DNA from: a virus
Taxonomy: Duplodnaviria > Heunggongvirae > Uroviricota > Caudoviricetes
DNA length: 42,470 nucleotides
Strand: one strand, 5' to 3'
Virus record (IMG/VR): IMGVR_UViG_2690316243_000004
A program made the translations under genes and the position numbers. The notes under the pieces were generated by a model. That model did not search any database. It saw only the letters and a program-made list of their open reading frames with translations, and had not been told where the DNA came from. Below, in pieces: positions 1-21,268 of the stretch (its first letter is position 1; every line of letters starts with the position of its first letter).

Positions 1-918
1 TTACGAGAACTCGGCACAAGCGGGGAGAAAATACCGTTACTCAGTACAGCGAATACCTGGACTAATCGACAAACATTCAGCGGTGGCCTTTCTGGTGAAC
101 TATCCGGCAATGCTTCTACAGCTGCAAAATTAAAAACTGCCAGGAAAATAAGCAATGTGGCTTTTGATGGTTCCTCCGATATCACATTAAAAGCAAGTCA
201 TGTTGGTGCGTTTGCCTTAGGGAAAACAGGAAGCACCGTTGCGAATGATAAAGCAGTTGGATGGAACTGGAGTAGCGGAGCCTATAACGCAACTATTAGT
301 GGTGCATCAACGTTAATTATTCATTTTTATATGGGAGAAGGAAGTTGTCCTGCAGCTCAGTTTCGGATTAATTATAAAAATGGCGGTATTTTTTATCGTT
401 CAGCCCGTGATGGTTATGGTTTTGAAGCCGACTGGTCCGAATTTTACACCACCAGAAAACCTTCAGCAGGAGATGTTGGTGCACTGCCGTTATCTGGTGG
501 TCAACTGAATGGTGCACTGGGTATCGGAACATCCAGTGCTCTTGGCGGTAATTCGATTGTATTGGGTGATAATGACACGGGCTTTAAACAAAAAGGCGAT
601 GGTAATCTGGATGTTTATGCTAATAACGTCCATGTTATGCGCTTTGTCTCCGGAAGCATTCAAAGTAATAAAACCATAAATATTACGGGACGTGTTAATC
701 CCTCGGATTACGGTAACTTTGATTCCCGCTATGTGAGAGATGTCAGACTTGGCACACGAGTTGTTCAGACCATGAAGAAAGGCGTGATGTATGAAAAATC
801 AGGCCATGTAATCACGGGGCTTGGTATTATCGGTGAAGTCGATGGTGATGATCCGGCAGTATTCAGACCAATACAAAAGTTAATTAACGGAACATGGTAT
901 AACGTATCGCAGGTATAA
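1..918 (+). CDS. Tail fibre protein, C-terminal receptor-binding portion (5' end lies outside the window)
   Basis: Frame 1 is open from base 1 into the listed 157-918 ORF (which begins at GTG). The translation has tail-fibre-like glycine/serine-rich repeats and ends with [14 protein letters not shown], the C-terminal motif shared with the two other fibre cassettes in the window. Confidence 0.7.
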
Positions 919-920
919 TC

Positions 921-1454
921 ATGCAGCATTTAAAAAACATTGTCGCAGGTAATCCAAAAACCGTTGAACAATACCAGCTAACAAAGAATTTTGATGTTAT
1001 CTGGTTATGGTCCGAAGATGGAAAAAATTGGCATGAGGAATTAAAAAACTTTCAGGAGGATACAATAAAACTGGCTTACACAGTTGAGGGAATAATTATT
1101 GCTATAGACAAGGATGTATCAGCAATTAATCCAGAAGGTTTAAGTGTCGTTGAGTTGCCTGATATTACAGCAAATCGCCGGGCTGATATTTCGGGCAACT
1201 GGATGTTCAAAGATGGTGCGGTGATAAAGCGAACTTATACCGAGGAAGAGCAAAGGCAACAAGCGGAAAATGAAAAGCAGAGCCTGCTGCAGCTCGTCAG
1301 GGATAAAACCCAGCTGTGGGACTCTCAGCTACAGCTGGGCATCATTTCCGATGAGAATAAACAAAAATTAACCGAGTGGATGCTCTATGCGCAGAAGGTT
1401 GAATCCACAGACACCTCCAGCCTGCCAGTAACGTTTCCCGAACAACCAGAATGA
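921..1454 (+). CDS. Tail fibre assembly chaperone (Tfa / gpG-like)
   Basis: 177 aa, starts 3 bp after the fibre C-terminus. Its C-terminal half ([24 protein letters not shown]...) is repeated at 2492-2860 and 14730-15074, typical of mosaic tail fibre assembly proteins. Confidence 0.8.
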
Positions 1455-1460
1455 GAGAAG

Positions 1461-1481
1461 GCCCGCTATCGGGCCTTAATT
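1461..1481. terminator. Hairpin between convergent chaperone genes (possible bidirectional terminator); same element recurs at 2866-2886 and 15081-15101
   Basis: aaggcccg-ctat-cgggcctt stem-loop followed by a T-rich tract, placed between convergently transcribed genes. Confidence 0.4.
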
Positions 1482-1482
1482 T

Positions 1483-2046
1483 TTATTCAGGCTTTTGTGG
1501 CCATTCAGGATTTGCCGTATCCACACGGCTGACCAGAACACTGTAGCGTTCCCATGCTTCCAGTCGTGTGCGTTCCTCGTCTGTTGCCATATTCAGCCTG
1601 ACAGCGCGTTCCAGCGGCTGGATGACTGATTCAGCTTCGGAAAGCAATGCGGCCTTTTGTGATTCGGCCTGTTGTTGCAGTTCCTGTTCTGTATATTCCC
1701 TCTTTACTACTTTACCATCCAGAAACATCCATTTTCCGTTATTGTCTGCGTGACGATTTGCCGTAATATCAGGAACTTCAACTATGCTTAGCCCTTCAGG
1801 ATTAATAGTTGAAACGTCTTTACTGACAGCAACGATGATGTTGTTCTCATCGTAAGCAATTTTTATGGTGTCTGGCTGAAAATTCTTTTGTTCCTCATAC
1901 CAGTTTTTGCCATCTTCGCAAAAGAGCCATACCACGCCCGCTTTTTTAGTTAGCTGGTATTGTTCCGGTGTTTTCGGATTCCCGGCCTTAATATTTTTCA
2001 GGTGCATCATCTTAAACACTCCCCACGTTGTACCATATTCCCCCAA
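1483..2046 (-). CDS. Tail fibre assembly chaperone (Tfa/gpG-like), identical copy of 15103-15666
   Basis: 187 aa protein identical to that of 15103-15666; convergent with 921-1454. Confidence 0.8.
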
Positions 2047-2490
2047 TCAATTTCTGAATTGGCCTTCTGGCAACAGTGTCGACAATATCATCCGCATTGC
2101 TGTTAATTGCGGCTGTTAAAACATAACCTGACGCATCGCCAAAGCCGTAGTCGCGCCATACGTTTTTATATTCAATGCTGCCAAGACGAATATCCCGAAC
2201 GACATGATTATGCAGCCATGTGCTTAACCAGTTGTTTTCCCACACTGAACCATAAATATCGCCACTAGACGCAACTTGCGCACCACTTCCCAGCGCAAAT
2301 CCCCCATCTGTTTTAAAAATGAAATCACCACCACCATCTGAACCGTTATTAATATGAACACCATCACCACCGTTATCTTTCCACAAAAACATACGAATTC
2401 TTCCGTCTTCGTTGGCGAATGTAATGTGGTGGCGGTAATTACTTTTTAATCTAAAATTGCTGCCATTAGATTCAATATCTTTATAAAGAT
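2012..2490 (-). pseudogene. Silent or truncated copy of the 3' end of tail fibre gene H (C-terminal cassette)
   Basis: Translation matches the last ~150 aa of H ([16 protein letters not shown]...[18 protein letters not shown]). Homology stops abruptly at the n at 2491; the listed ORF 2012-2686 is a chimeric read-through. Confidence 0.6.
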
Positions 2491-2491
2491 N

Positions 2492-2860
2492 AATAATATT
2501 ATTGTCGCCATCACCAAAGATGCCTCCACGCTTAACCCTGAAGGTTATAGCGTCGTTGAGGTTCCTGATATTACAGCAAATCGCCGGGCTGATATTTCGG
2601 GCAACTGGATGTTCAAAGATGGTGCGGTGATAAAGCGAACTTATACCGAGGAAGAGCAAAGGCAACAAGCGGAAAATGAAAAGCAAAGCCTGCTACAGCT
2701 CGTCAGGGATAAAACCCAGCTATGGGACTCACAGCTACGGCTGGGCATTATTTCCGACGAGAATAAACAAAAATTAACCGAGTGGATGCTCTATGCGCAG
2801 AAGGTTGAATCCACAGACACCTCCAGCCTGCCAGTAACGTTTCCCGAACAACCAGAATGA
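2492..2860 (+). pseudogene. Tail fibre assembly chaperone, 5'-truncated C-terminal fragment
   Basis: In-frame translation from the junction reads ...[40 protein letters not shown]..., a third near-identical copy of the chaperone C-terminal half. Its first ~70 bp are an inverted repeat of part of 2889-3449. Confidence 0.55.
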
Positions 2861-2888
2861 GAGAAGGCCCGCTATCGGGCCTTAATTT

Positions 2889-3449
2889 TTACTCAGGCTT
2901 TTGTGGCCATTCTGGCTTTGCCGTATCCACACGGCTGACCAGAACACTGTAGCGTTCCCATGCTTCCAGTCGTGTGCGTTCCTCGTCTGTTGCCATATTC
3001 AGCCTGACAGCGCGTTCCAGCGGCTGGATGACTGATTCAGCTTCGGAAAGCAATGCGGCCTTTTGTGATTCGGCCTGTTGTTGCTGTTCGTCAGCCGTAT
3101 AAATCCGTTTAACCACAGCTCCGTCCTTAAACATCCACTTACCGGAATCATCAGCACGACGATTAGCTGTAATATCAGGAACCTCAACGACGCTATAACC
3201 TTCAGGGTTAAGCGTGGAGGCATCTTTGGTGATGGCGACAATAATATTATTTGCATCGTAAACAATCTTTATTGTGTCTGGCTGAAAGTTCTTCACTTCC
3301 TCATACCAGTTTTTTCCGTCCTCAGAGTAAAGCCAGATGACTCCGTGCTTCTTTGTTAACTCATACTGCTCCACTGTTTTAGCATTACCTGCTTTTATGT
3401 TCTTTAAGTGCATCATATTAAATACTCGCCACATTATACCAAGTGCCAT
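2889..3449 (-). CDS. Tail fibre assembly chaperone (Tfa/gpG-like), variant partner of the 3418-4428 cassette
   Basis: 186 aa; N-terminal half diverged from, C-terminal half nearly identical to, the 1483-2046 and 15103-15666 copies. Confidence 0.8.
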
Positions 3450-4428
3450 TTATATACTTTTGCACTGGCCTGTAATGAACGCCTGCAATATTATCGGCAG
3501 AGTTTTTTCCGGTATCCTGTACGTTAATCCCCGTCAGTACATAGCCTGACGGGCACTGAAAATTCCATGTTTGCCAGTTGTTCACTCCATAATATTGCTG
3601 TGAACCAAGTCGAACATCTTTCACATATCTGGAATCAAAATTGCCATAGTTGCCGGGAATAACTTGCGAGCCGCAAAGCCAGTTCCCGTTATTATCCATG
3701 TACGCCTGACCATCGGTGCCATTGGCTGTCCTTGAGTTATTAATCATGTAGATGCCAAATTGCTTATTTCCCAGACCGCCAATCATAAATTTGCGGTCGG
3801 CATGGTCCTGACGGAGCAAAGCCTGAGCACCATCAGTGGATACCGCATTACGTCCCAAAATAACATTCTGGTCACGCATATGAATCCACATGCCGGTACT
3901 ACTGTTAATTGCAAAACGGTTTGCAAATATATCCCCTGTAACATCAAGACCATGCCCCATGCTTATCCGGCCAGTTCTGAGATTAAGCGTAAAGGGGCGT
4001 AGTGGCCCTATATTACCATTTTCCCCTTCATTCTCTCGTGTAGGGATGATATGCAGGCATTCTTCAGAACGACGAAAAATGGCACCAAAAGATGAATTAA
4101 ATATCCTCAGTGCATTGACTGTCGATATTTTCACTTCACTGCTGAAAAGGGCTTCAACAAGAACAGACAAAGCATTCCATTTAAGATTCATCAGGTCTTT
4201 AGGCCGGGTGCCAATGATGCGGTGTCTCCATTTGAAATATTCATTGCCGTTGTTGCCTGTTTCAAACCACATGTAGGAATCGGTGTCTGCATCCGAATTA
4301 TTTTTAAACCCAATCTTTGCCCAGTCAGTATTTCGAATCCAGGCAAGGATTGAGTCGTTTTCAAAAGTAAGTCCACCGGACAACGTATCGCCATTTTTTT
4401 GCACGGCGTTACCAGCCTTGTTTACCGT
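3418..4428 (-). CDS. Alternative tail fibre C-terminal cassette (silent variable region)
   Basis: Begins directly at the crossover site with [20 protein letters not shown] (compare H: [20 protein letters not shown]) and ends [15 protein letters not shown]. An in-frame TAA at 4447-4449 inside the site closes the frame upstream, so it is not expressed as a fusion in this configuration. Confidence 0.7.
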
Positions 4429-4454
4429 TTCCTGTAAACCGAGGTTTTAGATAA
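4429..4454. promoter_or_regulatory. Recombination crossover site of the Gin/Cin/Pin/Hin (gix-like) type
   Basis: Minus strand reads TTATCTAAAACCTCGGTTTACAGGAA, one mismatch from the classical gix sequence as remembered. It sits at the fibre variable-region boundary about 55 bp upstream of the invertase 5' fragment. Confidence 0.6.
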
Positions 4455-4490
4455 TGGCCGTTTCCGGCCTGCATGGCATGATTTGCGCTT

Positions 4491-4715
4491 TTGGACGGGA
4501 GATTCAGCGTGCTGATTGGCTATGTAAGGGTATCAACAAATGACCAGAATACAGACCTGCAACGAAACGCTCTTGTTTGTGCAGGATATGAACAAATATT
4601 TGAAGATAAATTAAGCGGAACAAGGACAGGCCGACCTGGATTAAAACGTGCTTTAAAGCGCCTTCAAAAAGGTGACGCACTGGTTGTCTGAAAACTGGAC
4701 TGACTGGGTCACTGT
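4491..4715 (+). pseudogene. Serine invertase 5' fragment (truncated duplicate of 5687-6274)
   Basis: Encodes (M)LIGYVRVSTNDQNTDLQRNALVCAGYEQIFEDKLSGT... then a stop after ~66 codons. About 95% identical to 5649-5905, after which similarity is lost. Confidence 0.7.
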
Positions 4716-4889
4716 ATGCGGCATCTTGTCGTGCTGGTGGTGGAAGCCTAGAAAAAGTATCGGGTGTTGCTGAACCGTGTTGATACATCAACTGCACCTG
4801 ATATTGAGTGGCCTACGAACCCTGTCAGGGAGTAATCATTGGGATTATGCCGCAGCACGTCTTAAGCAAGAACGTGCTGCGGTTGGATG

Positions 4890-5474
4890 CTATTTTTTCC
4901 CTGAAGCGGAAAACATTACTACAGTACCTTGAACCCTGGTTTTAACATTCTCGAAATGCTCTGAGAGTATATGTGTTAAGCCTTCTTCGGAATCTTTTGT
5001 GTTTGAAAAGATGCCTTTCTGATTGTAAATGCGCATCAGTTTTTGACCGAAGCTATTGTGCACAACTCCATCGCCAAGAATTGTGGCTCCGTATAGAGTT
5101 CCATCGTCAGTTAAGGCCTGCGCCGCATTGCGTATTACACAGCTTTTTGTAGATATATTTCCAGGCAGGCAGTGAAGAAGGTAAAACATGGAAATGGAAT
5201 CAAATTGACCATGTAACGCCGCGGGATAAGGTTCAAAAACATCATGGCTAATTTTATGTTTAATTTTTGATTCCCCAGCCCTTGTAGATGCCGCGTTCAG
5301 GCTAGCTTCGTTCAAATCCATTAAAGATATCAGACTACTCTCAGGTACGTGAGTAAGGTAAAACCCAGTTCCAACACCAATATCCAGATGGTTGTTACCT
5401 AAATGTTCCAGAAAGTGTGGAAGAAGGTGTTCCTTTGTAGGACATCCCCATGCAAGCCGATTTGATACTCCCAA
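4890..5474 (-). CDS. Class I SAM-dependent methyltransferase, substrate unknown
   Basis: Motif I LDIGVGTG (DxGxGxG) near the N-terminus. The listed start is TTG; the frame stays open upstream to about 5556 with no in-frame ATG, so the true start is uncertain. Local sequence is AT-richer than the phage genes. Confidence 0.6.
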   Translation of the reverse strand: MGVSNRLAWGCPTKEHLLPHFLEHLGNNHLDIGVGTGFYLTHVPESSLISLMDLNEASLNAASTRAGESKIKHKISHDVFEPYPAALHGQFDSISMFYLLHCLPGNISTKSCVIRNAAQALTDDGTLYGATILGDGVVHNSFGQKLMRIYNQKGIFSNTKDSEEGLTHILSEHFENVKTRVQGTVVMFSASGKK

Positions 5475-5686
5475 AACCCACCAGTCATAAAGCTTTAGGG
5501 TAAGTGGTGTGTAAATTTTAGCCCCATCATCTGTGTTTTTTTCATTGATTTCACCATGTTATAGTTTTATTTGTGAATTAAATCAATTATGGCGATGAAT
5601 TACAAGGGGTTAAATGCTGCCGCAGCATAGCGATATTGAAATAGCCTNGCATGGCATGATTTGCGCTTTTGGACGGGAGATTCAGC

Positions 5687-6274
5687 GTGCTGATTGGCTA
5701 TGTAAGGGTATCAACAAATGACCAGAATACAGACCTGCAACGAAACGCTCTTGTTTGTGCAGGATGTGAACAAATATTTGAAGATAAATTAAGCGGGACA
5801 AAGACAGACCGACCGGGATTAAAACGCGCTTTAAAGCGCCTTCAAAAAGGTGACACGCTGGTTGTCTGGAAACTGGATCGCCTCGGGCGAAGCATGAAAC
5901 ATCTGATTTCTCTCGTCGGGGAACTACGGGAGCGAGGAATTAATTTTCGCAGTCTGACCGACAGCATAGATACATCTTCTCCAATGGGGCGTTTTTTCTT
6001 CCACGTGATGGGTGCCCTGGCTGAAATGGAACGTGAATTAATTGTTGAACGTACACTGGCCGGACTGGCGGCAGCACGCGCACGGGGGCGCACAGGCGGA
6101 CGTCGACCGAAGCTGACAAAAGAACAGCATGAGCAAATAGCAAGGCTGATCAAAAACGGGCACGACAGAAAACAACTGGCAATAATTTACGGCATTGGTA
6201 TATCGACGATTTATCGTTACCACCCCGCAGGAGAATCAATCGGAACAATAGAGAAGAGTCAGGAAACAAAATAA
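5687..6274 (+). CDS. pin: Serine recombinase, DNA invertase of the Pin/Gin/Cin/Hin family
   Basis: From the GTG start the protein reads MLIGYVRVSTNDQNTDLQRNAL... with the catalytic serine region and a C-terminal helix-turn-helix (GISTIYRY); closely resembles E. coli prophage Pin as recalled. Confidence 0.9.
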   Translation: MLIGYVRVSTNDQNTDLQRNALVCAGCEQIFEDKLSGTKTDRPGLKRALKRLQKGDTLVVWKLDRLGRSMKHLISLVGELRERGINFRSLTDSIDTSSPMGRFFFHVMGALAEMERELIVERTLAGLAAARARGRTGGRRPKLTKEQHEQIARLIKNGHDRKQLAIIYGIGISTIYRYHPAGESIGTIEKSQETK

Positions 6275-6309
6275 CCGCTAATCTGACCATTAGCGGTTTT
6301 TGTGTTAAA

Positions 6310-6804
6310 TCAGAACAACCCTTTAACTGAACTGGCCGCGCTGTTAAGGGATGATGTTACCTTATCTTTGAAGCCGGACAGCATATCGCTGAACGATGAG
6401 GATTGCAGGCGCTCCCGCAAATCCTCATCACAGCGTTCAAGAGTCAGTGAAAATTCTATCTTTTTCGCCTTACCGTAGCGATCAAACTCGGAGCGGGTCG
6501 TATTCGTTTCGGTCAGGACATACATGCCGTAAATCTGCCCGACGCCATCAATCAGAGGCCAGGGTCGTCCTGTATACGCCTGCGTGGTCAGCAGCGACAG
6601 CGACACTTCGCCACCTGTAATTTCAGGATAAAGCACACCAGAAAGAACGATGCGCTCATCACCTGCACCGATATACTGCCAGCTTGCCGAACGGTTAACG
6701 CGTTCATTTTTCACATGCCGCCAGCTTTTGTTTTGCTGTAACTGCTGATGCGGCAATGTACGCAGCTCAAAAACAAACATGCCGTAGATCATCATCATGG
6801 CCAT
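6310..6804 (-). CDS. Tail protein gpU-like
   Basis: 164 aa, immediately downstream of the tape measure gene in the FI-FII-E-T-U order; size matches P2 gpU. Confidence 0.7.
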   Translation of the reverse strand: MAMMMIYGMFVFELRTLPHQQLQQNKSWRHVKNERVNRSASWQYIGAGDERIVLSGVLYPEITGGEVSLSLLTTQAYTGRPWPLIDGVGQIYGMYVLTETNTTRSEFDRYGKAKKIEFSLTLERCDEDLRERLQSSSFSDMLSGFKDKVTSSLNSAASSVKGLF

Positions 6805-6810
6805 GACTCC

Positions 6811-9704
6811 TCAATCTTTATCGTAAAAACTGCCACGCCCGGCACGGGCGCGCCGTTCCATTTCTGCCCTGACCATTTCACCGACCAGTTTCGCCAGTTC
6901 GCGGGGATTCTGCGTAACAACGTTATGCAGATGAACATGAATTTCACCACCAAATCCGGAGGCAACAGGCTCCCGGTTACGGGAAGTTACAGGAACTGAT
7001 GCCACTGGAGAGCGTATGGCCTCCGCCACCGGGCGGGAGCTGGCCGCAACAACAGGGACCAGCGCCGGAGGCAGCGGAGCCGGGACCACGGGTGTGATAT
7101 TAATTGCGGGGGCAGGCTTACTGACCTGCGCAATCTTCCGCTCCTGCCACTCCCCACGAACAGCAAGTGCGCGGGGCAGGTTCTTAAAGACAATATCGCC
7201 GGGGCCAATGCGTTTTTTCGTCTCATCAACCAGCTTACCTGTGTTATCAGCAATTTTGCTGAGTCTGCGTAGCGTCCCGGTATTGCTGTCTGTGAGCGGT
7301 TTGTTGTCTTTGGGTTTATCACCTCCGGTGCCATTGCCATTTTCCACAGGCTTCGGCGGATTGATTTTCGCCAGGTCCCCCTGAAGCAAGGCAACCTTGT
7401 CCTGAAGAATGGCCGCACGCTGTGCGTCTTCGATTTTCTTGCGCGCCCTTTCCGCTTCATCCGGAAGGACGCCAAGTTTTTCAAGTATCCACGCCAGCGT
7501 ATCCAGTAGCATTTTTGCAGGTGTCAGAACAAGTTGTAACGCACCGCCAAGAACGTTACCGAATATCTCGCCAGCACTGGCACATTTATCCAGCGTTTCC
7601 TTGCTGGACTCCATCGGTGACAGCAGCGATTTAAACCAGTTAAAGACCTGAATAATCCCATCGCGCACGACATCAAAAACAGGGCCAAACCGTTCAAAGG
7701 TTTCGCGCAACGGGGTCAGCCTTTCCATAATCCCGCTGAACACCCCGGCAAAAAATGCCCTGATGGGATCCCAGTATTTCCAGATAAGAACGGCAGCTCC
7801 GGCAAGCGCAGCCACGATAAGACTAACCGGACTGAACAGCGCCCCGATAGCGCCACCAAGTAAAGAAACGGAACCCGTCACCATTCCCCATAATGCAGGC
7901 AGAACCCTGACAACATTCATTGATTCGGTCAGGAGAGAAAAACCGAGACGCAACGTAGCCAGCTTCCCGTGAAGCACCCCAATAACCAGAGACAACGAAC
8001 CAACCGTTGCTGTTGTCGCCAGCAGTGCGCCTCCCGCTATCAGTAACTGGCGCGTCAGTGCCGGGTGGGCCTGCGCCAGCGCCGTCACCTTTGAGACAAC
8101 CCGCGTGAGCCACTGCGTGACAGAACGCAGCGGACCGTCAACCAGATCACTGATGCGAATACGCAGACCTTCCCATGCACTGCCGAGTGATTTCAGGTTG
8201 CCATCAAGGTTATTGGCCATAACCTTTGCCGTGCGTTCTGCCTCACCGCGCGCGCCTTCAAGTTCTTTTCTCAGTTTGGCTAAGAAGCCGTCACCTGCCG
8301 CATCAACGAGGCCCATAAATGATGTGAAAGCCTCTTCTCCGGCAATGTCCTTAAAGAACGATACCCGGTCAACCTCCCCGTATTTGCGGGTGGCTTTATA
8401 GAGATCGGCCAGCACATTCTCCATCGGGCGCATTTTGCCTTTGGCGTCAGCAACTGACACCCCCAGCTCTTTCAGTGCTTCTGCCGCTGCCTTTGGCGGT
8501 GATGACAGATTGGCCAGGCTTTTACGCAACGCTGTACCTGCATCACTCCCCCTGATACCCATCTTCGCCAGCACGCCCGCCATCGCTGCGGCCTGCTCCA
8601 GCGATATTCCCAGCTTACCCGCCACCGGACCTGCATATTTCATGGTTTCGCCCAGTGCGCGAAGGTCAGTGTTGGTACGGGTAAACGCTGCGGTAAGTGT
8701 GTCACCGACCCGGTCCATCTGGTCAGCAGAGAGGCCGAACTGCGTCAGGATATTGGAACCAATATCCGCCGTCTCGCCGAGGTCCATACCGCCAGCCGTT
8801 GCCATGCTCAGCACGCCGGGAAGCGCAGCCTGAATGGCCTGCGGTGTGAAACCAGCCATTGCAAGAAATGCCTGTCCACTGGCGGCATCGCCTGCGGTGA
8901 ACTGCGTTTCAGAGCCAAGTTTTAACGCCTGCTCACGCAGCGCCTTAAACTGCGGGCTGTTTTTATCGATTCGCGTCAGTGCCTGAACACGGGACATCTC
9001 TTTCCCGAACCCGATAGCGGGCTGCAAAAAACGCCNNNNNNNNNNNNNNNNNNNNNNNNNNNNNNNNNNNNNNNNNNNNNNNNNNNNNNNNNNNNNNNNN
9101 NNNNNNNNNNNNNNNNNNNNNNNNNNNNNNNNNNNNNNNNNNNNNNNNNNNNNNNNNNNNNNNNNNNNNNNNNNNNNNNNNNNNNNNNNNNNNNNNNNNN
9201 NNNNNNNNNNNNNNNNNNNNNNNNNNNNNNNNNNNNNNNNNNNNNNNNNNNNNNNNNNNNNNNNNNNNNNNNNNNNNNNNNNNNNNNNNNNNNNNNNNNN
9301 NNNNNNNNNNNNNNNNNNNNNNNNNNNNNNNNNNNNNNNNNNNNNNNNNNNNNNNNNNNNNNNNNNNNNNNNNNNNNNNNNNNNNNNNNNNNNNNNNNNN
9401 NNNNNNNNNNNNNNNNNNNNNNNNNNNNNNNNNNNNNNNNNNNNNNNNNNNNNNNNNNNNNNNNNNNNNNNNNNNNNGGCGTCGTGCTTTCACGATGCCC
9501 GCATCCGCTTTACTGACAGCGTCACGGGCGCGCTCAAATGAACGCGCCTGACGCTCGAGATTTTTGATCGCCCCCTGCGTTCGCTGGATGGAGTCACCAA
9601 ACTGCCCCATCAGGCGGCGGGCGTTTTCGGCAGGGNNNNNNNNNNNNNNGCCGGGTCAGCCTGTCAACGGCGCTGAAAGCGACCCGGATATCAAGAGTCT
9701 TCAT
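6811..9704 (-). CDS. Tail tape measure protein (gpT-like), interrupted by assembly gaps
   Basis: Long alanine/glycine-rich, helix-rich protein. The listed 738 aa ORF continues through the N run to an ATG at 9704-9702 (MKTLDIRVAFSAVDRL...). Confidence 0.75.
9036..9477. other. Run of N (sequence gap) inside the tape measure gene; a second short N run is at 9636-9649
   Basis: Directly visible as n characters. Confidence 0.99.
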
Positions 9705-9909
9705 TGTCTGCATTCCCGCTGCGAAGTGCCGCCCGCTCACGCCAGCTAACCACTTCGCCGGGCGTCATCATGAAGATTTCGGCGGGCGACCAGTTAAAAA
9801 TGGCGGCAATATCCGCCACAAAGTCTTCTATGTGCTCAAAGCACACAACCGTGATCAGGCTTCCGTCGCCTGTTCGTTCTTCTCGCCAGAGTCCGCACCG
9901 CTCAAAAAA
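9691..9909 (-). CDS. E-prime extension, made as an E+E' fusion by -1 programmed frameshifting
   Basis: Minus strand reads gta aaT TTT TTG agc (heptamer at 9903-9909). The -1 frame then gives ERCGLWREERTGDG...NEDS, ending 14 bp inside the tape measure start. Confidence 0.6.
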   Translation of the reverse strand, partial: FFERCGLWREERTGDGSLITVVCFEHIEDFVADIAAIFNWSPAEIFMMTPGEVVSWRERAALRSGNADNEDS

Positions 9910-10220
9910 TTTACGGCAACCACACATAACTGAATAAAGTCACGGGATGCCATTTTTTTGATCGTCACTTCATCCAGTCGCGGTGATGTCACGCGTGACA
10001 GCAGCGTAAACATGGATTCCGCTTTCAAATTCAGCACATCAGACAGCGACAAATCTCGCAGAGATCCAGCCTGCTCAATAGCCCCGGTGATCTCCACATA
10101 CGTGATTTTTTCGCCGCCTCGCTCAATTGGTTGGGTAAGTTTTACGCCACGCTCACTGGTTTCTTTCACAGTGTCAGCAACGACCGTGTTTTCGGTATCG
10201 ATGTTTTTCGTCTCTTTCAT
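9855..10220 (-). CDS. Tail assembly chaperone gpE-like (zero-frame product)
   Basis: 121 aa ORF between the tail tube and tape measure genes; contains a T TTT TTG slippery heptamer near its 3' end. Confidence 0.7.
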   Translation of the reverse strand: MKETKNIDTENTVVADTVKETSERGVKLTQPIERGGEKITYVEITGAIEQAGSLRDLSLSDVLNLKAESMFTLLSRVTSPRLDEVTIKKMASRDFIQLCVVAVNFLSGADSGEKNEQATEA

Positions 10221-10274
10221 CAGGAAACTCCTTTCAGTCAGAGGCGACGCACTGCGCCGCCTGCATATTACTTA

Positions 10275-10787
10275 TCAGCCAAGCCCGAGCGCGGAACGGA
10301 TGCGATCGGGCACAATGTCCCTGCCGTCCTTCCGGTAAATGAAGTTCAGCAGGTCAATCTCCCACAACGGGCGATCGTTAACACTCAGCTTGTAGTAGGT
10401 GTTTTTAATGGCGTAAGTGTGTGATGTGGCTTCGCCCTGTTTGGCTTCCCCCATATCAATTTCCGTCACACGTCCGCGCATTTCGACTTCATACAGGTCG
10501 CTTTCAGCGTCGGTGTAGTATTCACCCGCAAAACGCAGCAGCGTACCGTCAATCGTGCCGCCATACTTAAGGAACAGCTCACGAACTGCGCCCCCCATGA
10601 CAAAGCTCGCATCAAGCGCGGAGTCATCCAGGCCGAGATCAATACTTACCGCTCCCATCATGCCACCACCCCGGTAGCTGTCGGTTTTGCGCGTCAGCTT
10701 AGGCAGAGTGACGGACGTCACCTTACCCACTTCGTTTTCACCATCCACAAACAGCGTAAAAAAGCGAAGATGTTTTGGTACAGCCAT
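10275..10787 (-). CDS. Tail tube protein (FII-like)
   Basis: 170 aa, immediately downstream of the sheath gene with overlapping stop/start; size and position match P2 FII. Confidence 0.8.
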   Translation of the reverse strand: MAVPKHLRFFTLFVDGENEVGKVTSVTLPKLTRKTDSYRGGGMMGAVSIDLGLDDSALDASFVMGGAVRELFLKYGGTIDGTLLRFAGEYYTDAESDLYEVEMRGRVTEIDMGEAKQGEATSHTYAIKNTYYKLSVNDRPLWEIDLLNFIYRKDGRDIVPDRIRSALGLG

Positions 10788-11971
10788 CAGGCACCTCCCA
10801 GCACCGCAAATGCGGGACCAAAGAATTCATCAGTAAACGACTGGTAAAGCTCCATGTCTTCCAGCGGGGGAACAGGCGTATATTTGTAGCGAATACGCAC
10901 GCGCCCCTGACGTAAATTCGTGGTGCCGTTATCCACCACGTCATACCAGCACGACGCCCCAATCAGTTTCCCGGCAGTAACCAGTGAATCCAGTTTTGCC
11001 CTGATGGCACCGATAACATCCTTCACGTTCGCAGGCGTCAGTGGACTGTCGATGGTTTCAAACTGCGCTTCCGCAATTGAATCAGCCAGCACCTGTGCGG
11101 TTCGGGTATACACCTCAAAGATGTAGGCGTTCGTTTCCGGTGTGCGGTTGCCCCAGAAGCGGAACCCGTTGCGACGAATAATGGTCGTGATTTCTTTGTT
11201 GTTGAGGCTGTTGGCATCACTGTCTTCGGCCTGCAACGACCAGAACACATGCCTGGACATCCCCAGCACATTTTTAACCGGAACGTTGGACAGCGATTTG
11301 TGCCAGCCCTGCTCATGGTCAATGTACGCACGAAGGCCGCACGCATAGGCAGGCGCGGGGAACGTTTCGTTTTTGCCACTTTTCGGGTTGTAGGCGATGA
11401 AGTCCGGCCATAAGAGCATCACCTCACGTTCGTTGAATTTCTGGCGGTAGGTAATTGCCTCAGCCATCGTGTTACAGTCATGACATGAGGCATACACAAA
11501 CGCGCGCAGTTTACCCGCAATCACGCACAGGGATTTTGTCACCGCCTCCGTGTCCAGCTCCGGCGCGGCCAGAATACGCGGACGGTATCCGATGCTTTCA
11601 TCCTGCTCTGCAACAAGCAGCGCATACATCCCCGTATAGCTGCCGTCAGATTCAGAACCACCGATAACCAGTTGATCCTGCGTTTTTCCGTCTTCTTCTT
11701 TGTGTTCAGCCACGCGAACGACGATCACCTTTGTGCTCACCTGGTCTGCGATGGCCTTAAGCGCACGATAAAGCGTCCCCGTTGTTCCGCATTTTCCCAG
11801 CACGTCATTGACGCGGGGCAGCAGTGTGGGCTTGTTCAGCGAGAACAGCTCCGCGTCCGCATCATCCGCCGTTGCCACGATACCGATAACGCTGGAATCA
11901 ACATCGTTAATCGCTGTTACCAGGTCGGTATTTTCCGTAACACGGGCACCATGAAAACGAGTTTCACTCAT
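10787..11971 (-). CDS. Contractile tail sheath protein (FI-like)
   Basis: 394 aa; size and position match P2 FI. Confidence 0.85.
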   Translation of the reverse strand: MSETRFHGARVTENTDLVTAINDVDSSVIGIVATADDADAELFSLNKPTLLPRVNDVLGKCGTTGTLYRALKAIADQVSTKVIVVRVAEHKEEDGKTQDQLVIGGSESDGSYTGMYALLVAEQDESIGYRPRILAAPELDTEAVTKSLCVIAGKLRAFVYASCHDCNTMAEAITYRQKFNEREVMLLWPDFIAYNPKSGKNETFPAPAYACGLRAYIDHEQGWHKSLSNVPVKNVLGMSRHVFWSLQAEDSDANSLNNKEITTIIRRNGFRFWGNRTPETNAYIFEVYTRTAQVLADSIAEAQFETIDSPLTPANVKDVIGAIRAKLDSLVTAGKLIGASCWYDVVDNGTTNLRQGRVRIRYKYTPVPPLEDMELYQSFTDEFFGPAFAVLGGA

Positions 11972-12128
11972 AGCTTCAACCCCTTGTATCCGTTAAATGA
12001 TTCGGCAACAATCATCACCCACCACGCGCGTAATCTCACCCCTGCGCCATTCTCCCGCCACGGCGACAACAAAAAGCAGTAACCCCCTCCGCACGCACAT
12101 GCGACCATGCCACACAGGGAGGGAGCAG

Positions 12129-13238
12129 ATGACCGACACCACCATGCAATTGCTCAGTCAGGGCACAGACCCCGTGAAAATGCCGGATTTTGATATTCTC
12201 GCGGAGGGTAAAACGCTGTCAGGCGTGGCAGAGCGCCTGATGAGCCTGTCACTGACCGACAACCGGGGATTTGAGGCGGACCAGCTCACCATCACGCTGG
12301 ATGATGCGGATGGTCAGTTGCAGCTACCGCCACGGGGCGCGCGCCTGACGGTTCTCATTGGCTGGAAGGGAGAACCGCTGACAGAAAAAGGCACTTACAT
12401 TGTTGATGAAATCGCTCACGAAGGACCGCCGGACAGGCTGACTGTTTCAGCCAGAAGCGCAGATTTTCGGGCTGAATTTAACGTTAAACGTGAGGTGTCC
12501 TGGCATGATGTGACCGTTGAGCGTGTGGTATCCGCCATCGCTCATCGGTATGGTCTGAAACCGCAAATCAGCGAAATGCTGATGGATATCGAAATCGACC
12601 ACGCCGACCAGACCGAAGAAAGCGACATGTCCTTCCTTACGCGCATGGCGGAAATGCTGGGCGCAATCACCACGGTAAAAAGCGGTAATCTGTTATTCAT
12701 CATGCCCGGTGGTGGCGTGAACGCACAGGGCCAGCCGTTGCCCTCGTTCGCCATCACACGCAGCAGCGGCGATCGCCATCAGTTCCGCATTGCTGACCGC
12801 GAAGCGTATACGGGGGTACGCGCTTACTGGCTTGATCTTAATTACGGGAAAAAGAAAAAAGTCAGCGTGAAACGCCGCAAACCGTCAAAACCAAAAAAGG
12901 AGAAAAGCAGCAGCCGGGAAGGCGACTATATGGAAGGTGCGGAAGGCAACGTGTTTGTGTTACGCAAAACTTATCAGAACGAGCAGGCAGCAAGACGTGC
13001 AGCGGCGGCAAAGTGGCAGCAGCTACAACGCGGAGCCGCATCATTCTCCATCACACTGGCGCATGGACGTGCAGAACTCTACCCCGAAATGCATGGCACG
13101 GTAACAGGATTTAAAAGCGAGATTGATAATCAGGACTGGATTATTGCAAAAGCCGAGCACACCATTGATAACAGCGGCTTTACCACGCAGCTTGAGCTTG
13201 AGGCAAAAATCCCGGAATGGATAGCAGAAACAGAGTGA
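12129..13238 (+). CDS. Tail protein D (late control gene D family)
   Basis: The listed ORF starts at 11997, but the ATG at 12129 follows a GGAGGG ribosome-binding site. It is divergent from FI, which is not the P2 order. Confidence 0.75.
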   Translation: MTDTTMQLLSQGTDPVKMPDFDILAEGKTLSGVAERLMSLSLTDNRGFEADQLTITLDDADGQLQLPPRGARLTVLIGWKGEPLTEKGTYIVDEIAHEGPPDRLTVSARSADFRAEFNVKREVSWHDVTVERVVSAIAHRYGLKPQISEMLMDIEIDHADQTEESDMSFLTRMAEMLGAITTVKSGNLLFIMPGGGVNAQGQPLPSFAITRSSGDRHQFRIADREAYTGVRAYWLDLNYGKKKKVSVKRRKPSKPKKEKSSSREGDYMEGAEGNVFVLRKTYQNEQAARRAAAAKWQQLQRGAASFSITLAHGRAELYPEMHGTVTGFKSEIDNQDWIIAKAEHTIDNSGFTTQLELEAKIPEWIAETE

Positions 13239-13478
13239 GCAACTTAAATGTATTAACTCAGAACGGATCAACACACTCACAACATAGAGTCAATATAGCT
13301 GCTCGCTTTGTTCCAGCAAGGATGCCTATTTCTAAGGAAAAACAGAGCAGAAACATATGGTGTTTTCCTACCTGACATCAGGGGTGGTAGACTGGCCCCC
13401 TGAATCTCCAGACAACCAGTATCACTTAAATAAGTGATAGTCTTAATACTAGTTTTTAGACTAGTCATTGGAGTACAG

Positions 13479-13844
13479 ATGATTGATGTCTTAGGGCCGG
13501 AGAAACGCAGACGGCGTACCACACAGGAAAAGATCGCAATTGTTCAGCAGAGCTTTGAACCGGGGATGACGGTCTCCCTCGTTGCCCGGCAACATGGTGT
13601 AGCAGCCAGCCAGTTATTTCTCTGGCGTAAGCAATACCAGGAAGGAAGTCTTACTGCTGTCGCCGCCGGAGAACAGGTTGTTCCTGCCTCTGAACTTGCT
13701 GCCGCCATGAAGCAGATTAAAGAACTCCAGCGCCTGCTCGGCAAGAAAACGATGGAAAATGAACTCCTCAAAGAAGCCGTTGAATATGGACGGGCAAAAA
13801 AGTGGATAGCGCACGCGCCCTTATTGCCCGGGGATGGGGAGTAA
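13479..13844 (+). CDS. insC: IS2 transposase OrfA (InsC)
   Basis: [56 protein letters not shown]... helix-turn-helix protein. Confidence 0.85.
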
Positions 13845-14707
13845 GCTTAGTCAGCCGTTGTCTCCGGGTGTCGCGTGCGCAGTTGCACGTCATTCTCAGA
13901 CGAACCGATGACTGGATGGATGGCCGCCGCAGTCGTCACACTGATGATACGGATGTGCTTCTCCGTATACACCATGTTATCGGAGAGCTGCCCACGTATG
14001 GTTATCGTCGGGTATGGGCGCTGCTTCGCAGACAGGCAGAACTTGATGGTATGCCTGCGATCAATGCCAAACGTGTTTACCGGATCATGCGCCAGAATGC
14101 GCTGTTGCTTGAGCGAAAACCTGCTGTACCGCCATCGAAACGGGCACATACAGGCAGAGTGGCCGTGAAAGAAAGCAATCAGCGATGGTGCTCTGACGGG
14201 TTCGAGTTCTGCTGTGATAACGGAGAGAGACTGCGTGTCACGTTCGCGCTGGACTGCTGTGATCGTGAGGCACTGCACTGGGCGGTGACTACCGGCGGCT
14301 TCAACAGTGAAACAGTACAGGACGTCATGCTGGGAGCGGTGGAACGCCGCTTCGGCAACGATCTTCCGTCGTCTCCAGTGGAGTGGCTGACGGATAATGG
14401 TTCATGCTACCGGGCTAATGAAACACGCCAGTTCGCCCGGATGTTGGGACTTGAACCGAAGAACACGGCGGTGCGGAGTCCGGAGAGTAACGGAATAGCA
14501 GAGAGCTTCGTGAAAACGATAAAGCGTGACTACATCAGTATCATGCCCAAACCAGACGGGTTAACGGCAGCAAAGAACCTTGCAGAGGCGTTCGAGCATT
14601 ATAACGAATGGCATCCGCATAGTGCGCTGGGTTATCGCTCGCCACGGGAATATCTGCGGCAGCGGGCTTGTAATGGGTTAAGTGATAACAGATGTCTGGA
14701 AATATAG
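13802..14707 (+). CDS. insD: IS2 transposase OrfB (InsD), DDE catalytic domain
   Basis: 301 aa ORF overlapping insC in the -1 frame, as in IS3-family OrfAB frameshift fusions. Confidence 0.85.
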
Positions 14708-14729
14708 GGGCAAATCCANAGCATCAAGC

Positions 14730-15074
14730 CAAGATAAACGCTATCACATTGTTGAAGGCGCAAGCGTCGTTGAGGTTCCTGATATTACAGCAAATCGCCG
14801 GGCTGATATTTCGGGCAACTGGATGTTCAAAGATGGTGCGGTGATAAAGCGAACTTATACCGAGGAAGAGCAAAGGCAACAAGCGGAAAATGAAAAGCAG
14901 AGCCTGCTGCAGCTCGTCAGGGATAAAACCCAGCTATGGGACTCACAGCTACGGCTGGGCATTATTTCCGACGAGAATAAACAAAAATTAACCGAGTGGA
15001 TGCTCTATGCGCAGAAGGTTGAATCCACAGACACCTCCAGCCTGCCAGTAACGTTTCCCGAACAACCAGAATGA
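14730..15074 (+). pseudogene. Tail fibre assembly chaperone, C-terminal fragment truncated by IS2
   Basis: Begins just past the IS2 right end and encodes only the conserved C-terminal half (...[24 protein letters not shown]...PEQPE). Confidence 0.6.
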
Positions 15075-15102
15075 GAGAAGGCCCGCTATCGGGCCTTAAT
15101 TT

Positions 15103-15666
15103 TTATTCAGGCTTTTGTGGCCATTCAGGATTTGCCGTATCCACACGGCTGACCAGAACACTGTAGCGTTCCCATGCTTCCAGTCGTGTGCGTTCCTCGT
15201 CTGTTGCCATATTCAGCCTGACAGCGCGTTCCAGCGGCTGGATGACTGATTCAGCTTCGGAAAGCAATGCGGCCTTTTGTGATTCGGCCTGTTGTTGCAG
15301 TTCCTGTTCTGTATATTCCCTCTTTACTACTTTACCATCCAGAAACATCCATTTTCCGTTATTGTCTGCGTGACGATTTGCCGTAATATCAGGAACTTCA
15401 ACTATGCTTAGCCCTTCAGGATTAATAGTTGAAACGTCTTTACTGACAGCAACGATGATGTTGTTCTCATCGTAAGCAATTTTTATGGTGTCTGGCTGAA
15501 AATTCTTTTGTTCCTCATACCAGTTTTTGCCATCTTCGCAAAAGAGCCATACCACGCCCGCTTTTTTAGTTAGCTGGTATTGTTCCGGTGTTTTCGGATT
15601 CCCGGCCTTAATATTTTTCAGGTGCATCATCTTAAACACTCCCCACGTTGTACCATATTCCCCCAA
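15103..15666 (-). CDS. Tail fibre assembly chaperone (gpG-like), cognate to H
   Basis: 187 aa, immediately downstream of H on the same strand; identical to 1483-2046. Confidence 0.85.
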
Positions 15667-17545
15667 TCAATTTCTGAATTGGCCTTCTGGCAACAGTGTC
15701 GACAATATCATCCGCATTGCTGTTAATTGCGGCTGTTAAAACATAACCTGACGCATCGCCAAAGCCGTAGTCGCGCCATACGTTTTTATATTCAATGCTG
15801 CCAAGACGAATATCCCGAACGACATGATTATGCAGCCATGTGCTTAACCAGTTGTTTTCCCACACTGAACCATAAATATCGCCACTAGACGCAACTTGCG
15901 CACCACTTCCCAGCGCAAATCCCCCATCTGTTTTAAAAATGAAATCACCACCACCATCTGAACCGTTATTAATATGAACACCATCACCACCGTTATCTTT
16001 CCACAAAAACATACGAATTCTTCCGTCTTCGTTGGCGAATGTAATGTGGTGGCGGTAATTACTTTTTAATCTAAAATTGCTGCCATTAGATTCAATATCT
16101 TTATAAAGATGTAATCCTAACTCATCAATATGTCCGATGCGCGAACCATTTGAATAGAAGCTAATAATACCATCTCCATCTTGCCTAAATCCGGTGTCGT
16201 TATCTCCCAGAACAATGGAGTTTTCACCCAGTGCGTTATCAGTAGCTCCAATAGCTAGACCTCCTTTAATTTTGGCCCCGTGGCTGACAGATATAGCACC
16301 TGTTCTCAGATTTATAGCGAATGGCCTTAATGGGCCGATATTACCGTTTTCGCCTTGTCCTTCAGCCGTCGGAATGAAATGAAGAAAATCTTCTGAACGA
16401 CGGAAAATTAGACCGAAGGTATCATTGAAAATTCGCAGCGCATTCACCGTGCCAATTTTCAGTTCTCCGGTCATTTTATCGCCGGAACGCTGAACGGCGT
16501 TACCAGCCTTGTTTACCGTTTCCTGTAAACCGAGGTATTCGATAACGGCAGCAACGGTCGATTTCGCAAGAATATCCCGCCCGACTTTTGTCAGGGTTGC
16601 CAGGCTGGCGACATCATTCCCCGTAAAATACGGAAACCTGTCTGCCGCAGTAGCAAGCCCCGCCAGCGCCGTCAGAGTGGCATCTTTCGGTTGCTTACCC
16701 GCAAGCGCGTTAGTCATGGTGGTCGCAAAATTCGGGTCGTTGCCCAGCGCCGCCGCCAGCTCGTTCAGTGTGTTCAGTGCATCAGGCGAAGAGTCTACAA
16801 GTGCGGCAATCGCAGCCATAACGAAAGCCGTGCTTGCGATTTGGGTATTATTCGTTCCCTGTCGCGCAGTTGGTGTTGTTGGCGTTCCGGTCAGTGCCGG
16901 GCTGTTTAATGGGGCTTTCTTGTTCGTTTCATCCATTACTGCCTTAACGGCTTTTGGTGTCGCTGCCAGCGTTTCAGACGTGCTGTTGGTGGCGTTGCTG
17001 AGCTGGACAAGGCCTTTTGCGGTCAGCGAGGCGTCCGGGTGACGTCGTGACTGTTCATGCTCTTTCAGTTTGTCATCCACGTAATTCACTGTGGCCATCA
17101 CCATGGTGTTATCCACGGTAAGCGCCACAGTGGCAGTGCTGGATACGGTCAGAATGGTGCGAAATGTTTGTGCACGTCCGGATCCTTCGGCAACGGTTGG
17201 CTTGTAACTTTCGGCAGTATTGCCTACCGCGATCAAATCGCCGTGCTCATCAAACACACCAATTTCCCGGATCCAGAATCCGCCCGTTTCAGGAGGAATA
17301 ACCAGCTCCGCAATAATGTGGTTCTGATGTGTTGCGTCCAGGGTGACGCGATTAACGGTATGTCGCCACACCTCATGCACAAGACGGGTCTGCTTACTGT
17401 CTGGCGTGGGTAAAGTACCGCCGCCGTCACCCACGGCCATATGTGTCAGGCGGACAGGTTTCCCATCTGGCGCGGTTGCCTGCGCTAATTTTTTTGCACC
17501 CGTATCGGTGATAATGGTTTTAAATTTTCGTGTTGTGGTACTCAT
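15632..17545 (-). CDS. Tail fibre protein (gpH-like), constant N-terminal part fused to a variable C-terminal part
   Basis: 637 aa; a gix-like site sits in the coding sequence at the constant/variable boundary ([21 protein letters not shown]); ends [18 protein letters not shown]. Confidence 0.85.
16520..16545. promoter_or_regulatory. gix-like invertase crossover site embedded in tail fibre gene H
   Basis: ttcctgtaaaccgaggtattcgataa on the plus strand. Together with about 30 bp upstream it matches 4401-4440 and is in the same (direct) orientation as the 4429-4454 site. Confidence 0.55.
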
Positions 17546-17547
17546 GC

Positions 17548-18111
17548 TTAATCGTCCGGATAAATGGTAATGACTTCACCGTCGTAAGTTGCTGCTGCCG
17601 CGAAAATATCTCCCTGAATCTCCTGAATGATATTCAGCCCTGTCATGTGGCGGCTGACCGGGCGGGCATCAGCAATCAACCGCTCCATTTCCAGATACAT
17701 TTCCTCCGTCACGCCACTGTCCAGCGTGCCAACATCAATCTTGAATGTTCCGGGTTCGCCGTTGAACTCCCACCACTCAGACACGCGAATGAGGTATCCC
17801 AGCGGCTCAATGGCCCGTCGCAGGGCGCTGATGGTTCCTTTGTGTCGGTGTATCAGCCATGCATCACGAATCACCTGTCGCTTTGTCTCTTCCGGCCAGT
17901 TGCGATCCCAGCGGTCAACGGAAAACGCCCAGGCGAGATAAGGCAGCAGATGCACCGGGCAGGTGTCCGGCGACCACAGCGTGTTGAGGTCTGCCGGAAT
18001 GTCTGTAATGCGTGTTCCGACGGCTTCGGCACAACGCATGAAATTGCTGGCTGATGGTGGTAACAGTGAATTACTCATTACGCCCACCTTCGCTGATGGT
18101 GAATGACTCAC
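17548..18111 (-). CDS. Baseplate protein gpI-like
   Basis: 187 aa, between J and H in P2 late-gene order. Confidence 0.7.
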   Translation of the reverse strand: MSHSPSAKVGVMSNSLLPPSASNFMRCAEAVGTRITDIPADLNTLWSPDTCPVHLLPYLAWAFSVDRWDRNWPEETKRQVIRDAWLIHRHKGTISALRRAIEPLGYLIRVSEWWEFNGEPGTFKIDVGTLDSGVTEEMYLEMERLIADARPVSRHMTGLNIIQEIQGDIFAAAATYDGEVITIYPDD

Positions 18112-18967: not shown

Positions 18968-18970
18968 GAT

Positions 18971-19321
18971 TTACTCCCTCAGCGTGATGGTTAATTCAAC
19001 ATTCTGCATGGTCTGCATGACAGTGCCCGACAGCGTCACCCCGGCGTGGCCTCCTGCCTTCCAGACAACGTCGATGGCGTTCAGGGCAATGCGTGGTTCC
19101 CATCGTGTCAGTGCAATCACGGTAGCACTCATGCATTGCAGACGCGTGGTGTTATTCATGGGTTCGTCAATCAAATCAGGCACAAGGCTGCCATATTCCC
19201 GTCGCATAACCCGGCTTGCCAGCGGGGTGGTCAGGATGTCCCTGACTGACTGTTTCAGGTGCGCCATATCGTTCAGGTTTCCCGTCCCGTCCGGGTTCAT
19301 TCCTGTGTAGCGGGTTGTCAC
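18971..19321 (-). CDS. Baseplate protein gpW-like
   Basis: 116 aa, between V and J. Confidence 0.7.
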   Translation of the reverse strand: MTTRYTGMNPDGTGNLNDMAHLKQSVRDILTTPLASRVMRREYGSLVPDLIDEPMNNTTRLQCMSATVIALTRWEPRIALNAIDVVWKAGGHAGVTLSGTVMQTMQNVELTITLRE

Positions 19322-20991: not shown

Positions 20992-21268
20992 GGTTGTTGT
21001 CCTCGTTGTTCAGTCGTTGCAGCCTGCGCTGTTCCAGTAATTCAATGGCCCGCTTATCGGCGTTACAGGTTTCCAGTGCGTCCATGAGGCTGTCGCTCCA
21101 TATCCCGATGTTTCCCCATGATGGCGTCACCGGAAACGGCGGGGGAAGTACGGGGGCGGTCAGCCCTTCCGGGATGAAACGGAACGACGGCGGCGGCGCG
21201 GACGCGTTCTGCGTGCTGGTGCAACCGCTCAGTAAAGCGAGCGTCAGGAACAGCGCGGGCACATGCAT
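20978..21268 (-). CDS. Outer-membrane spanin lipoprotein (LysC/Rz1-like)
   Basis: From the internal ATG: MHVPALFLTLALLSGCTSTQ... with a signal peptide, LSGC lipobox and proline-rich body; the reading frame overlaps the i-spanin gene. Confidence 0.6.
   Translation of the reverse strand: MHVPALFLTLALLSGCTSTQNASAPPPSFRFIPEGLTAPVLPPPFPVTPSWGNIGIWSDSLMDALETCNADKRAIELLEQRRLQRLNNEDNNHAEN

Follow-up and report, generated by a model that had tools for sequence, protein, structure and literature searches.

An apparently rearranged P2-family prophage is most probably an ordinary P88-like prophage with an IS2 insertion in a mis-joined draft scaffold

Introduction

In phage P2 all late genes lie on one strand, without an invertase or alternative fiber cassettes. 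Switches between alternative tail fibers are known from the Gin/Cin/Pin/Hin systems (the G segment of Mu, the C segment of P1, the P segment of e14), where a serine invertase lies by two opposed cassettes, each with a fiber tip and a tail-fiber-assembly (tfa) gene. The phage P88 (NC_026014; Xuanwuvirus, Peduoviridae), to which the locus described here is closely similar, is inducible by mitomycin and forms plaques (PMC5285337). The stretch of DNA analyzed ("the window"; 42,470 nt; IMG/VR record IMGVR_UViG_2690316243_000004) contains a P2-family prophage in which gene D is divergent from FI, an invertase gene follows U, and a copy of the insertion sequence (IS) IS2 stands between D and a tfa fragment. 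A reading made from the sequence alone ("the sequence-only reading") had regarded this order as non-canonical and had proposed IS2-mediated inversion or deletion, with a scaffolding error as the alternative.

The window holds an ordinary Xuanwuvirus (P88-like, P2-family) prophage at the btuC-ihfA site, a kind of prophage that is already known and that implies no new biology. Taking all observations together, it is very probable that such a prophage received a simple IS2 insertion and that the remaining odd adjacencies stem from a mis-scaffolded draft.

Gene Order of P88-Like Prophages

Two blocks of the window are colinear with P88 at 91-98% identity, 5649-13246 with P88 26939-34441 and, on the opposite strand, 14754-36558 with P88 25736-2089; the left arm (16551-38321) is colinear with P88 2089-23880, and the best phage matches carry the ICTV genus label Xuanwuvirus. 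In the first of these blocks a serine DNA invertase of the Gin/Cin/Pin type is predicted at 5669/5687-6274 (plus strand; Pfam Resolvase, 1.5e-50, and HTH_7), in the place of P88 gp43. It is adjoined, on the minus strand, by U (6310-6798) and T (6811-9704), both found by a scan for open reading frames (ORFs), and these by E' (9691-9846), E (9855-10220), FII (10275-10787) and FI (10787-11971). This tail operon (6310-11971) is colinear with that of P88 at 95-97% identity, and 99.97% identical to that of Shigella sonnei ATCC 29930. D, which encodes the tail or baseplate hub (12129-13238, plus strand; Pfam Phage_GPD), is divergent from FI.

The order typical of Xuanwuvirus, with arrowheads for the strand, is H> G> <G' <Hv' (invertible, with the crossover site cix) inv> <U <T <E' <E <FII <FI D> cargo> ogr> hok> <ihfA. 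This arrangement occurs in P88, phage 520873, and E. coli T28R, O26 RM8426 and O111 11128, and also in closed chromosomes of the Shigella lineage whose D or I protein is identical to that of the window, among them S. sonnei ATCC 29930 (CP026802.1; strain named in PMC9430107); in closed chromosomes the exact D protein is followed by PIN-ogr-hok-ihfA. Of 5,426 complete E. coli genomes, 619 have a colinear inv-U-T stretch and 1,117 a colinear divergent FI/D pair. Since this order is genus-typical and is that of the viable P88 as well, no rearrangement is needed to account for D being divergent from FI or for the invertase next to U, both of which the sequence-only reading had judged by the standard of P2. 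The P2-type order (FI-FII-E-T-U-D-ogr on one strand, after H-G) is indeed absent, FI to U lying on the strand opposite to D, and the same is true of every P88-like relative examined; P2 is the wrong template for the comparison here. From the invertase through U, T, E, FII and FI to D the internal order in the window equals that of Xuanwuvirus; only the orientation versus H-G differs, and the change falls at an N joint.

It had further been suggested that D and ogr might go unexpressed and that the prophage could be defective or tailocin-like. Gene order lends no support to a defect; the P88-like layout is compatible with a working phage because P88 is inducible and plaque-forming, and ogr merely lies off the scaffold (tblastn found no homologues of ogr, PIN or hok in the window). 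A tailocin is contradicted by the presence of head, portal, terminase, lysis, replication and integrase genes; those for portal, terminase, scaffold, capsid, head completion, replication endonuclease and integrase lie at 18-38 kb of the window. The P2 Ogr-type late-promoter motif, TGT-N12-ACA, has four matches in the window versus about ten expected by chance, and none in the late intergenic regions including FI-D. The left arm (16551-38321, minus strand; assigned by Pfam and gene calls) comprises the constant part of H, then I, J, W, V, S, R, the lysis genes, X, L, M, N, O, P and Q, as well as partition and replication genes, the regulatory switch and, at the btuC side, the integrase gene. 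Beyond it, 37-42 kb of the window are the chromosomal btuCED flank, which is 99.7% identical to E. coli O26 chromosomes with a P88-like prophage at btuC-ihfA.

Pieces of Two Loci in One Scaffold

Exact-protein look-up and sequence comparison identified the window as the entire draft scaffold record CXCY01000026.1 (42,470 bp; GCA_001258795.1), the sequences being identical; the source is most likely an isolate of the S. sonnei lineage. It is strongly supported that the record is a multi-contig short-read scaffold in which N joints link pieces of two loci. A base scan gave three single Ns (2491, 5648 and 14719) and two longer runs, of 442 N (9036-9477) and 14 N (9636-9649), both inside T. In N-free relatives the 442-N run corresponds to 372 nt, and the 14-N run plus two extra G bases (9634-9649) to none at all; the long runs thus have the wrong size, which marks the record as scaffolded. 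The 14-N run is a spurious gap inside the tape-measure gene T, and the two runs are not real interruptions of it.

The pieces were mapped on the closed genome CP032523.1, which carries, about 527 kb apart, both a P88-like prophage at btuC-ihfA (locus L023 of the comparison set) and a lambdoid remnant at trp (L031), the latter in the context trpB-trpA...MTase-pin'-cix-Hv_A-G_A-<G_C-<Stf-<Lom. The first piece of the window (1-2490) comes from the remnant and is 99.96% identical, with one mismatch, to L031 6081-8570 at 4.27 Mb of CP032523. It consists of a variable side-tail-fiber part, Hv_A (1-918, plus strand), the tfa genes G_A (921-1454, plus) and G_C (1483-2010, minus) and the 3' part of Stf (2012-2490, minus); its positions 1353-2490 are exactly duplicated at 14973-16110 (1138 bp). 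There follows, at 2492-4466, the right half of the invertible tail-fiber segment of the P88-like prophage, with a tfa 3' fragment (2492-2860, plus), a complete tfa gene (2889-3416, minus), the alternative fiber tip Hv_B (3418-4404, minus) and a crossover (cix-type) site at about 4429-4448. This half matches ATCC 29930 (L028) and, over window 2730-4447, is 99.65% identical to L023 14177-15894.

In N-free contigs (L012, L015) the cix-Hv_B block directly adjoins the invertase. In the window an interloper from the lambdoid remnant occupies 4467-5647. Over 4434-5653 it is 99.5% identical, in opposite orientation, to L031 (6084 down to 4864), sequence that abuts window position 1 in the closed genome, and it is 99.1% identical to the lambdoid end at ompW/trp of NCTC86. 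It contains a truncated pin-type invertase fragment (about 4491-4745, plus), a tfa fragment and a gene with a Pfam match to S-adenosylmethionine-dependent methyltransferases (4890-5549, minus). The P88-like prophage of CP032523.1 is then matched at 99.91% by window 5644-8995 and at 99.94% by 16505-28078 (up to 99.96% among closed P88-like prophages). In between, lambdoid-derived sequence is fused to the left arm at 14720-16637; it comprises a tfa 3' fragment, the tfa gene G_C and an Stf-type tip, Hv_C, with a cix core at 16518-16535 and a zone at 16551-16637 in which the sequence switches from one locus to the other.

The single Ns lie at the edges of repeats or of IS2, as the sequence-only reading had noticed. 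At 2491 a fiber gene is cut after a perfect 14-bp palindrome, ATCTTTATAAAGAT, and joined to a tfa 3' fragment cut in mid-frame. The palindrome occurs inside the fiber gene at 2477-2490 and 16097-16110 and, at 2491, ends the 1138-bp exact repeat; this suggests that it broke the assembly graph, the first piece ending exactly there. At 5648 the joint runs from the lambdoid methyltransferase region to a point 20 nt ahead of the invertase start, the N standing at the start of the invertase 5' repeat; the invertase-proximal crossover site is missing, while relatives have cix followed by TGGCCGTTTCCGGCCT there. At 14719, the first base after the right end of IS2, the joint leads into another tfa 3' fragment. 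None of the 5,426 complete E. coli genomes spans joint 2491, 5648 or 14719, and the 83-aa truncated tfa product created at two joints is found in no other assembly of the collection. Gene positions, strands, IS2 flanks and N positions had all been described correctly, and the scaffolding error mentioned as an alternative is strongly supported by a multi-contig record whose N joints link loci that a closed genome of this lineage has some 527 kb from each other.

In a mis-scaffolded draft, short-read contigs ending in repeats would have been chained by the scaffolder, with single-N placeholders marking the joints. The repeats involved would be the tfa and fiber cassettes common to the prophage and the lambdoid remnant at trp, the crossover site with the 5' end of the invertase gene, and multicopy IS2; the adjacencies of IS2 and tfa fragment, of methyltransferase and invertase, and of fiber gene and tfa gene would then be artefacts. 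Scaffolders of the SSPACE type write a single "n" for an unresolved contig overlap. One might instead take the single Ns for ambiguous calls from a mixed population with the invertible segment in both orientations, and it is true that closed genomes show both flip states, so that flipping happens, and that 5648 adjoins the expected crossover site. However, no N falls within a crossover core (about 4429-4448 and 16518-16535), the two sides of each N derive from different genes or loci and are cut in mid-gene, one N stands at the terminus of IS2, and the wrong-sized long N runs show that scaffolding took place in this record; ambiguous calls are, accordingly, hardly a credible source of the Ns.

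The IS2 Insertion

IS2 occupies exactly 1331 bp (13388-14718, plus strand), as judged from its size and its ends (TAGACTGGCC... and ...GGGGCAAATCCA); it is full-length, with terminal inverted repeats, carries orfA and orfB with HTH_Tnp_1 and rve domains, and has E. coli matches that bear the annotation IS3-like element IS2. GGTGG flanks it on the left, and the N followed by AGCA on the right. The right flank lies behind the scaffold joint, so a 5-bp duplication is not visible in the window, from which the continuation expected past the right end of IS2 (GGTGGTAAGAATCATG..., TAAGAATCATGCTTTGATAACC) is absent. The uninterrupted site in O111 11128 reads ...CATCAGGGGTGG abutting TAAGAATCATG..., followed by the PIN-domain gene, ogr, hok and ihfA. 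In contig ADUU01000015.1 (207 kb, no N in the fetched stretch), which encodes an identical D protein, IS2 is found at the same site and in the same orientation, differing in 2 of 1331 nt; there GGTGG stands on both sides, followed by TAAGAATCATG..., PIN, an intact ogr, hok, ihfA and pheT. The likeliest reading is a simple insertion of IS2 between D and PIN, in the intergenic region, of which only the left junction is genuine in the scaffold; the true right flank, we infer, belongs to a different contig of the assembly.

An inversion or deletion mediated by IS2 has no support, as the genus-typical order accounts for the places of D and the invertase and the IS2 of ADUU01000015.1 is a simple insertion with GGTGG and with PIN-ogr-hok-ihfA downstream. 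A proper 5-bp duplication with D in its expected position, which the sequence-only reading had named as refuting its proposal, thus exists in this related contig, not in the isolate itself. The statement that D lies between FI and G, separated from G by IS2, holds insofar as IS2 adjoins tfa sequence; this "G", however, is only a 3' fragment (14720-15074, plus), and a complete G-type gene, tfa G_C (15103-15630, minus), comes after it.

A simple insertion in a mis-joined draft could have produced the picture as follows. The contig with the D flank would end at the right terminus of multicopy IS2, where the scaffolder would have attached another contig; if another IS2 copy truly abuts the attached contig, a walk through the collapsed IS2 could have given the flipped orientation without any real inversion. 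Elsewhere in the assembly one would then expect an IS2 end followed by GGTGGTAAGAATCATGC and PIN-ogr-hok-ihfA, and Hv_B followed by cix, TGGCCGTTTCCGGCCT and GCATGGCATG. A real IS2-mediated inversion, by contrast, would have required an inverted IS2 in tfa to recombine with the IS2 downstream of D, flipping the block from the invertase and U to FI and D and splitting the duplications. This would fit the unmatched IS2 flanks and the block 5649-14718 lying opposite to 14754-36558 relative to P88 and all closed relatives, and real IS insertions do occur in the copies of the prophage in closed genomes of the lineage. Yet an N placeholder forms the joint, at the very end of a multicopy IS2; past it, 14973-16637 has the same sequence as the lambdoid remnant, which is another locus; and the predicted far side (cix, Hv', the 5' half of tfa and IS2) is not found left of the invertase, where a lambdoid methyltransferase piece stands behind another N. 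The same IS2 is a simple insertion with duplication in ADUU01000015.1, and the walk through a collapsed copy gives the same picture; a real inversion of this kind seems very unlikely.

IS elements have affected the same region in other genomes. In the closed Shigella-lineage chromosomes with loci L013, L014, L022, L023 and L026, IS3-family elements (385-aa transposase) adjoin the crossover site and the invertase, and in some of those genomes such an element also lies inside a tfa gene cut down to 137 aa; these are cases of real IS-driven decay of the fiber switch, at sites other than the one singled out by the sequence-only reading.

The joint at 14719 is directly followed by 34 nt (14720-14753) that share the reading frame of the tfa fragment and had no match in the fetched loci, IMG/VR or the GTDB species representatives; complete E. 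coli genomes match only from 14754 onward. They may come from a rare tfa allele or from the flank of a different IS2 copy, or may be an artefact of gap filling.

The Tail-Fiber Switch and a Chimeric H

The "G" and the fiber tip adjoining IS2 are foreign to the P88-like prophage. Window 14973-16637 has no mismatch to the lambdoid remnant (L031), and from 16551 rightwards to 16992 there is none to the P88-like prophage of ATCC 29930, while position 16550 already has the lambdoid base; the switch between the two lies within an 87-nt stretch common to both (16551-16637), outside the crossover core (16518-16535). The 637-aa tail-fiber ORF, H (15632-17545, minus), is an assembly chimera of the P88-like H constant part and a lambdoid Stf C-terminal part. 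As exchange by the invertase would switch within the crossover core, the switch at 16551-16637 is not an invertase product, and invertase-mediated exchange between the prophages at this junction of the H constant part with Hv_C was rejected; an exact repeat mis-joined in a short-read graph would give the pattern. Four public assemblies list the 637-aa H among their proteins; three of these records share the CX or FT accession prefixes. Three sister scaffolds with the chimeric H (CXDL01000021, FTUZ01000029 and CXBQ01000042) contain the same pieces, each differently ordered around its own N joints, and some of these orders make no biological sense (for instance baseplate-H-G followed by a lambdoid J fragment); in their N-free stretches the invertase block has the canonical orientation versus I-H-G.

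A real recombination between the P88-like prophage and the lambdoid remnant at trp, through common fiber/tfa sequences or crossover sites, would have inverted about 0.5 Mb of the chromosome, with the ends of the inversion in this scaffold. In its favor, no N separates P88-like from lambdoid sequence at 16551-16637 and about 4434-4470, the same H junction occurs in four assemblies, and sites in both prophages might in principle be used by the invertase. Against this, the switch at 16551-16637 falls outside the crossover core, in an 87-nt exact repeat of the kind that short-read graphs mis-join; the sister scaffolds hold both chimeric and native junctions of the H constant part, and a duplicated I-H constant region, which is incompatible with one clean exchange in a genome with a single such prophage; and the chimeric H is present in only four records, compared with 1,250 blocks of the collection for the neighboring protein I. 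We regard this recombination as very improbable.

Four points nevertheless weigh against an ordinary prophage with a simple insertion in a mis-joined draft. The 34 nt at 14720-14753 could be a genuine strain-specific junction; the right flank of IS2 in this isolate is deduced from relatives; in closed genomes of the lineage the invertible segment and its surroundings do contain real IS insertions, so that an IS-driven change there is not implausible in principle; and the presence of the 637-aa H in four assemblies could reflect shared ancestry rather than recurrent assembly error. A real exchange in this isolate via fiber cassettes and/or IS2, in which an inversion of about 0.5 Mb parted D from ogr and swapped fiber cassettes, appears very improbable.

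The native fiber locus has the predicted parts of a switch, namely a serine invertase (Resolvase and HTH_7), crossover sequences and opposed fiber-tip/tfa cassettes. Both flip states are found in closed genomes, one with an H of 656 aa and a G (tfa) of 177 aa, the other with an H of 678 aa and a G of 175 aa, the loci dividing into L022, L024, L025, L027 and L029 versus L023, L026 and L028; this indicates a switch that is, or recently was, active. Judged by its predicted genes, the element is a P2-family temperate myovirus with a Gin/Cin/Pin-type switch that would alternate the C-terminal fiber tip and its chaperone. A region with multiple cassettes (Min- or shufflon-like) was considered for the three tfa copies and rejected, the extra cassettes residing in the separate lambdoid remnant about 527 kb off.

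Variation among the Relatives

What lies between D and ogr differs among P88-like prophages (L006 20565-22067; L002 13653-14822; L005 35440-36942). E. coli T28R has a DUF3800 gene there, on the opposite strand, and the O111, O26 and Shigella lineages have a gene for a 500-aa PIN_4-domain protein. The slot appears to be a hotspot for variable cargo, possibly for defense; in the lineage of the window IS2 stands just upstream of it. Two closed relatives (L025 13099-13329; L027 13128-13329) are without the invertase and most of the invertible segment, U following almost directly after G, and L025 also lacks a cargo gene, ogr coming next after D; both represent natural deletion variants of this module.

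At strain level the one real feature of the window is IS2 between D and the PIN-domain cargo gene, which a related assembly has as well. P2 is not the right template for every P2-family prophage, and the inverted tail operon and invertase of Xuanwuvirus are normal and viable. When IS-rich, poly-lysogenic genomes are scaffolded from short reads, single-N joints can mimic rearrangements, and they can yield chimeric "proteins", the 637-aa fiber and the 83-aa tfa fragment being now in public protein collections.

Comparison with Known Systems

The IS2 copy agrees with IS2 of the IS3 family in size, ends and orfA/orfB, and in the N-free relative has the 5-bp duplication GGTGG; what departs from the usual picture is that in the window the right duplication is not seen, the scaffold joining the IS2 end to an unrelated contig. 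Like the Gin/Cin/Pin/Hin systems, the fiber switch has a crossover site inside the fiber gene and occurs in both flip states among closed genomes; unlike those of Mu, P1 and e14 it is embedded in a P2-type tail module, and its invertase-proximal site is lost at an N joint in this scaffold. P2 (Peduovirus) has homologous structural genes, and sheath, tube, E, T, U, D and baseplate belong to the same Pfam families in both; it differs in the order H-G-(Z/fun)-FI-FII-E-E'-T-U-D-ogr, while in Xuanwuvirus FI to U lie on the opposite strand, between invertase and D. From its P88-like relatives the window copy is set apart by IS2 between D and the cargo gene, by the right end of the record (PIN, ogr, hok and attR), which is missing, and by fiber cassettes which the scaffolder would have mixed with those of another prophage. 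With P88 and the P88-like prophages at btuC-ihfA (S. sonnei ATCC 29930, E. coli O26 RM8426 and O111 11128) it otherwise shares gene content and order, int...Q P O N M L X lysis R S V W J I H G, the invertible G'/Hv', the invertase, <U T E' E FII FI and D>, at 91-98% identity to P88 and 99.9% to the closed Shigella-lineage prophages, and with the same btuC flank.

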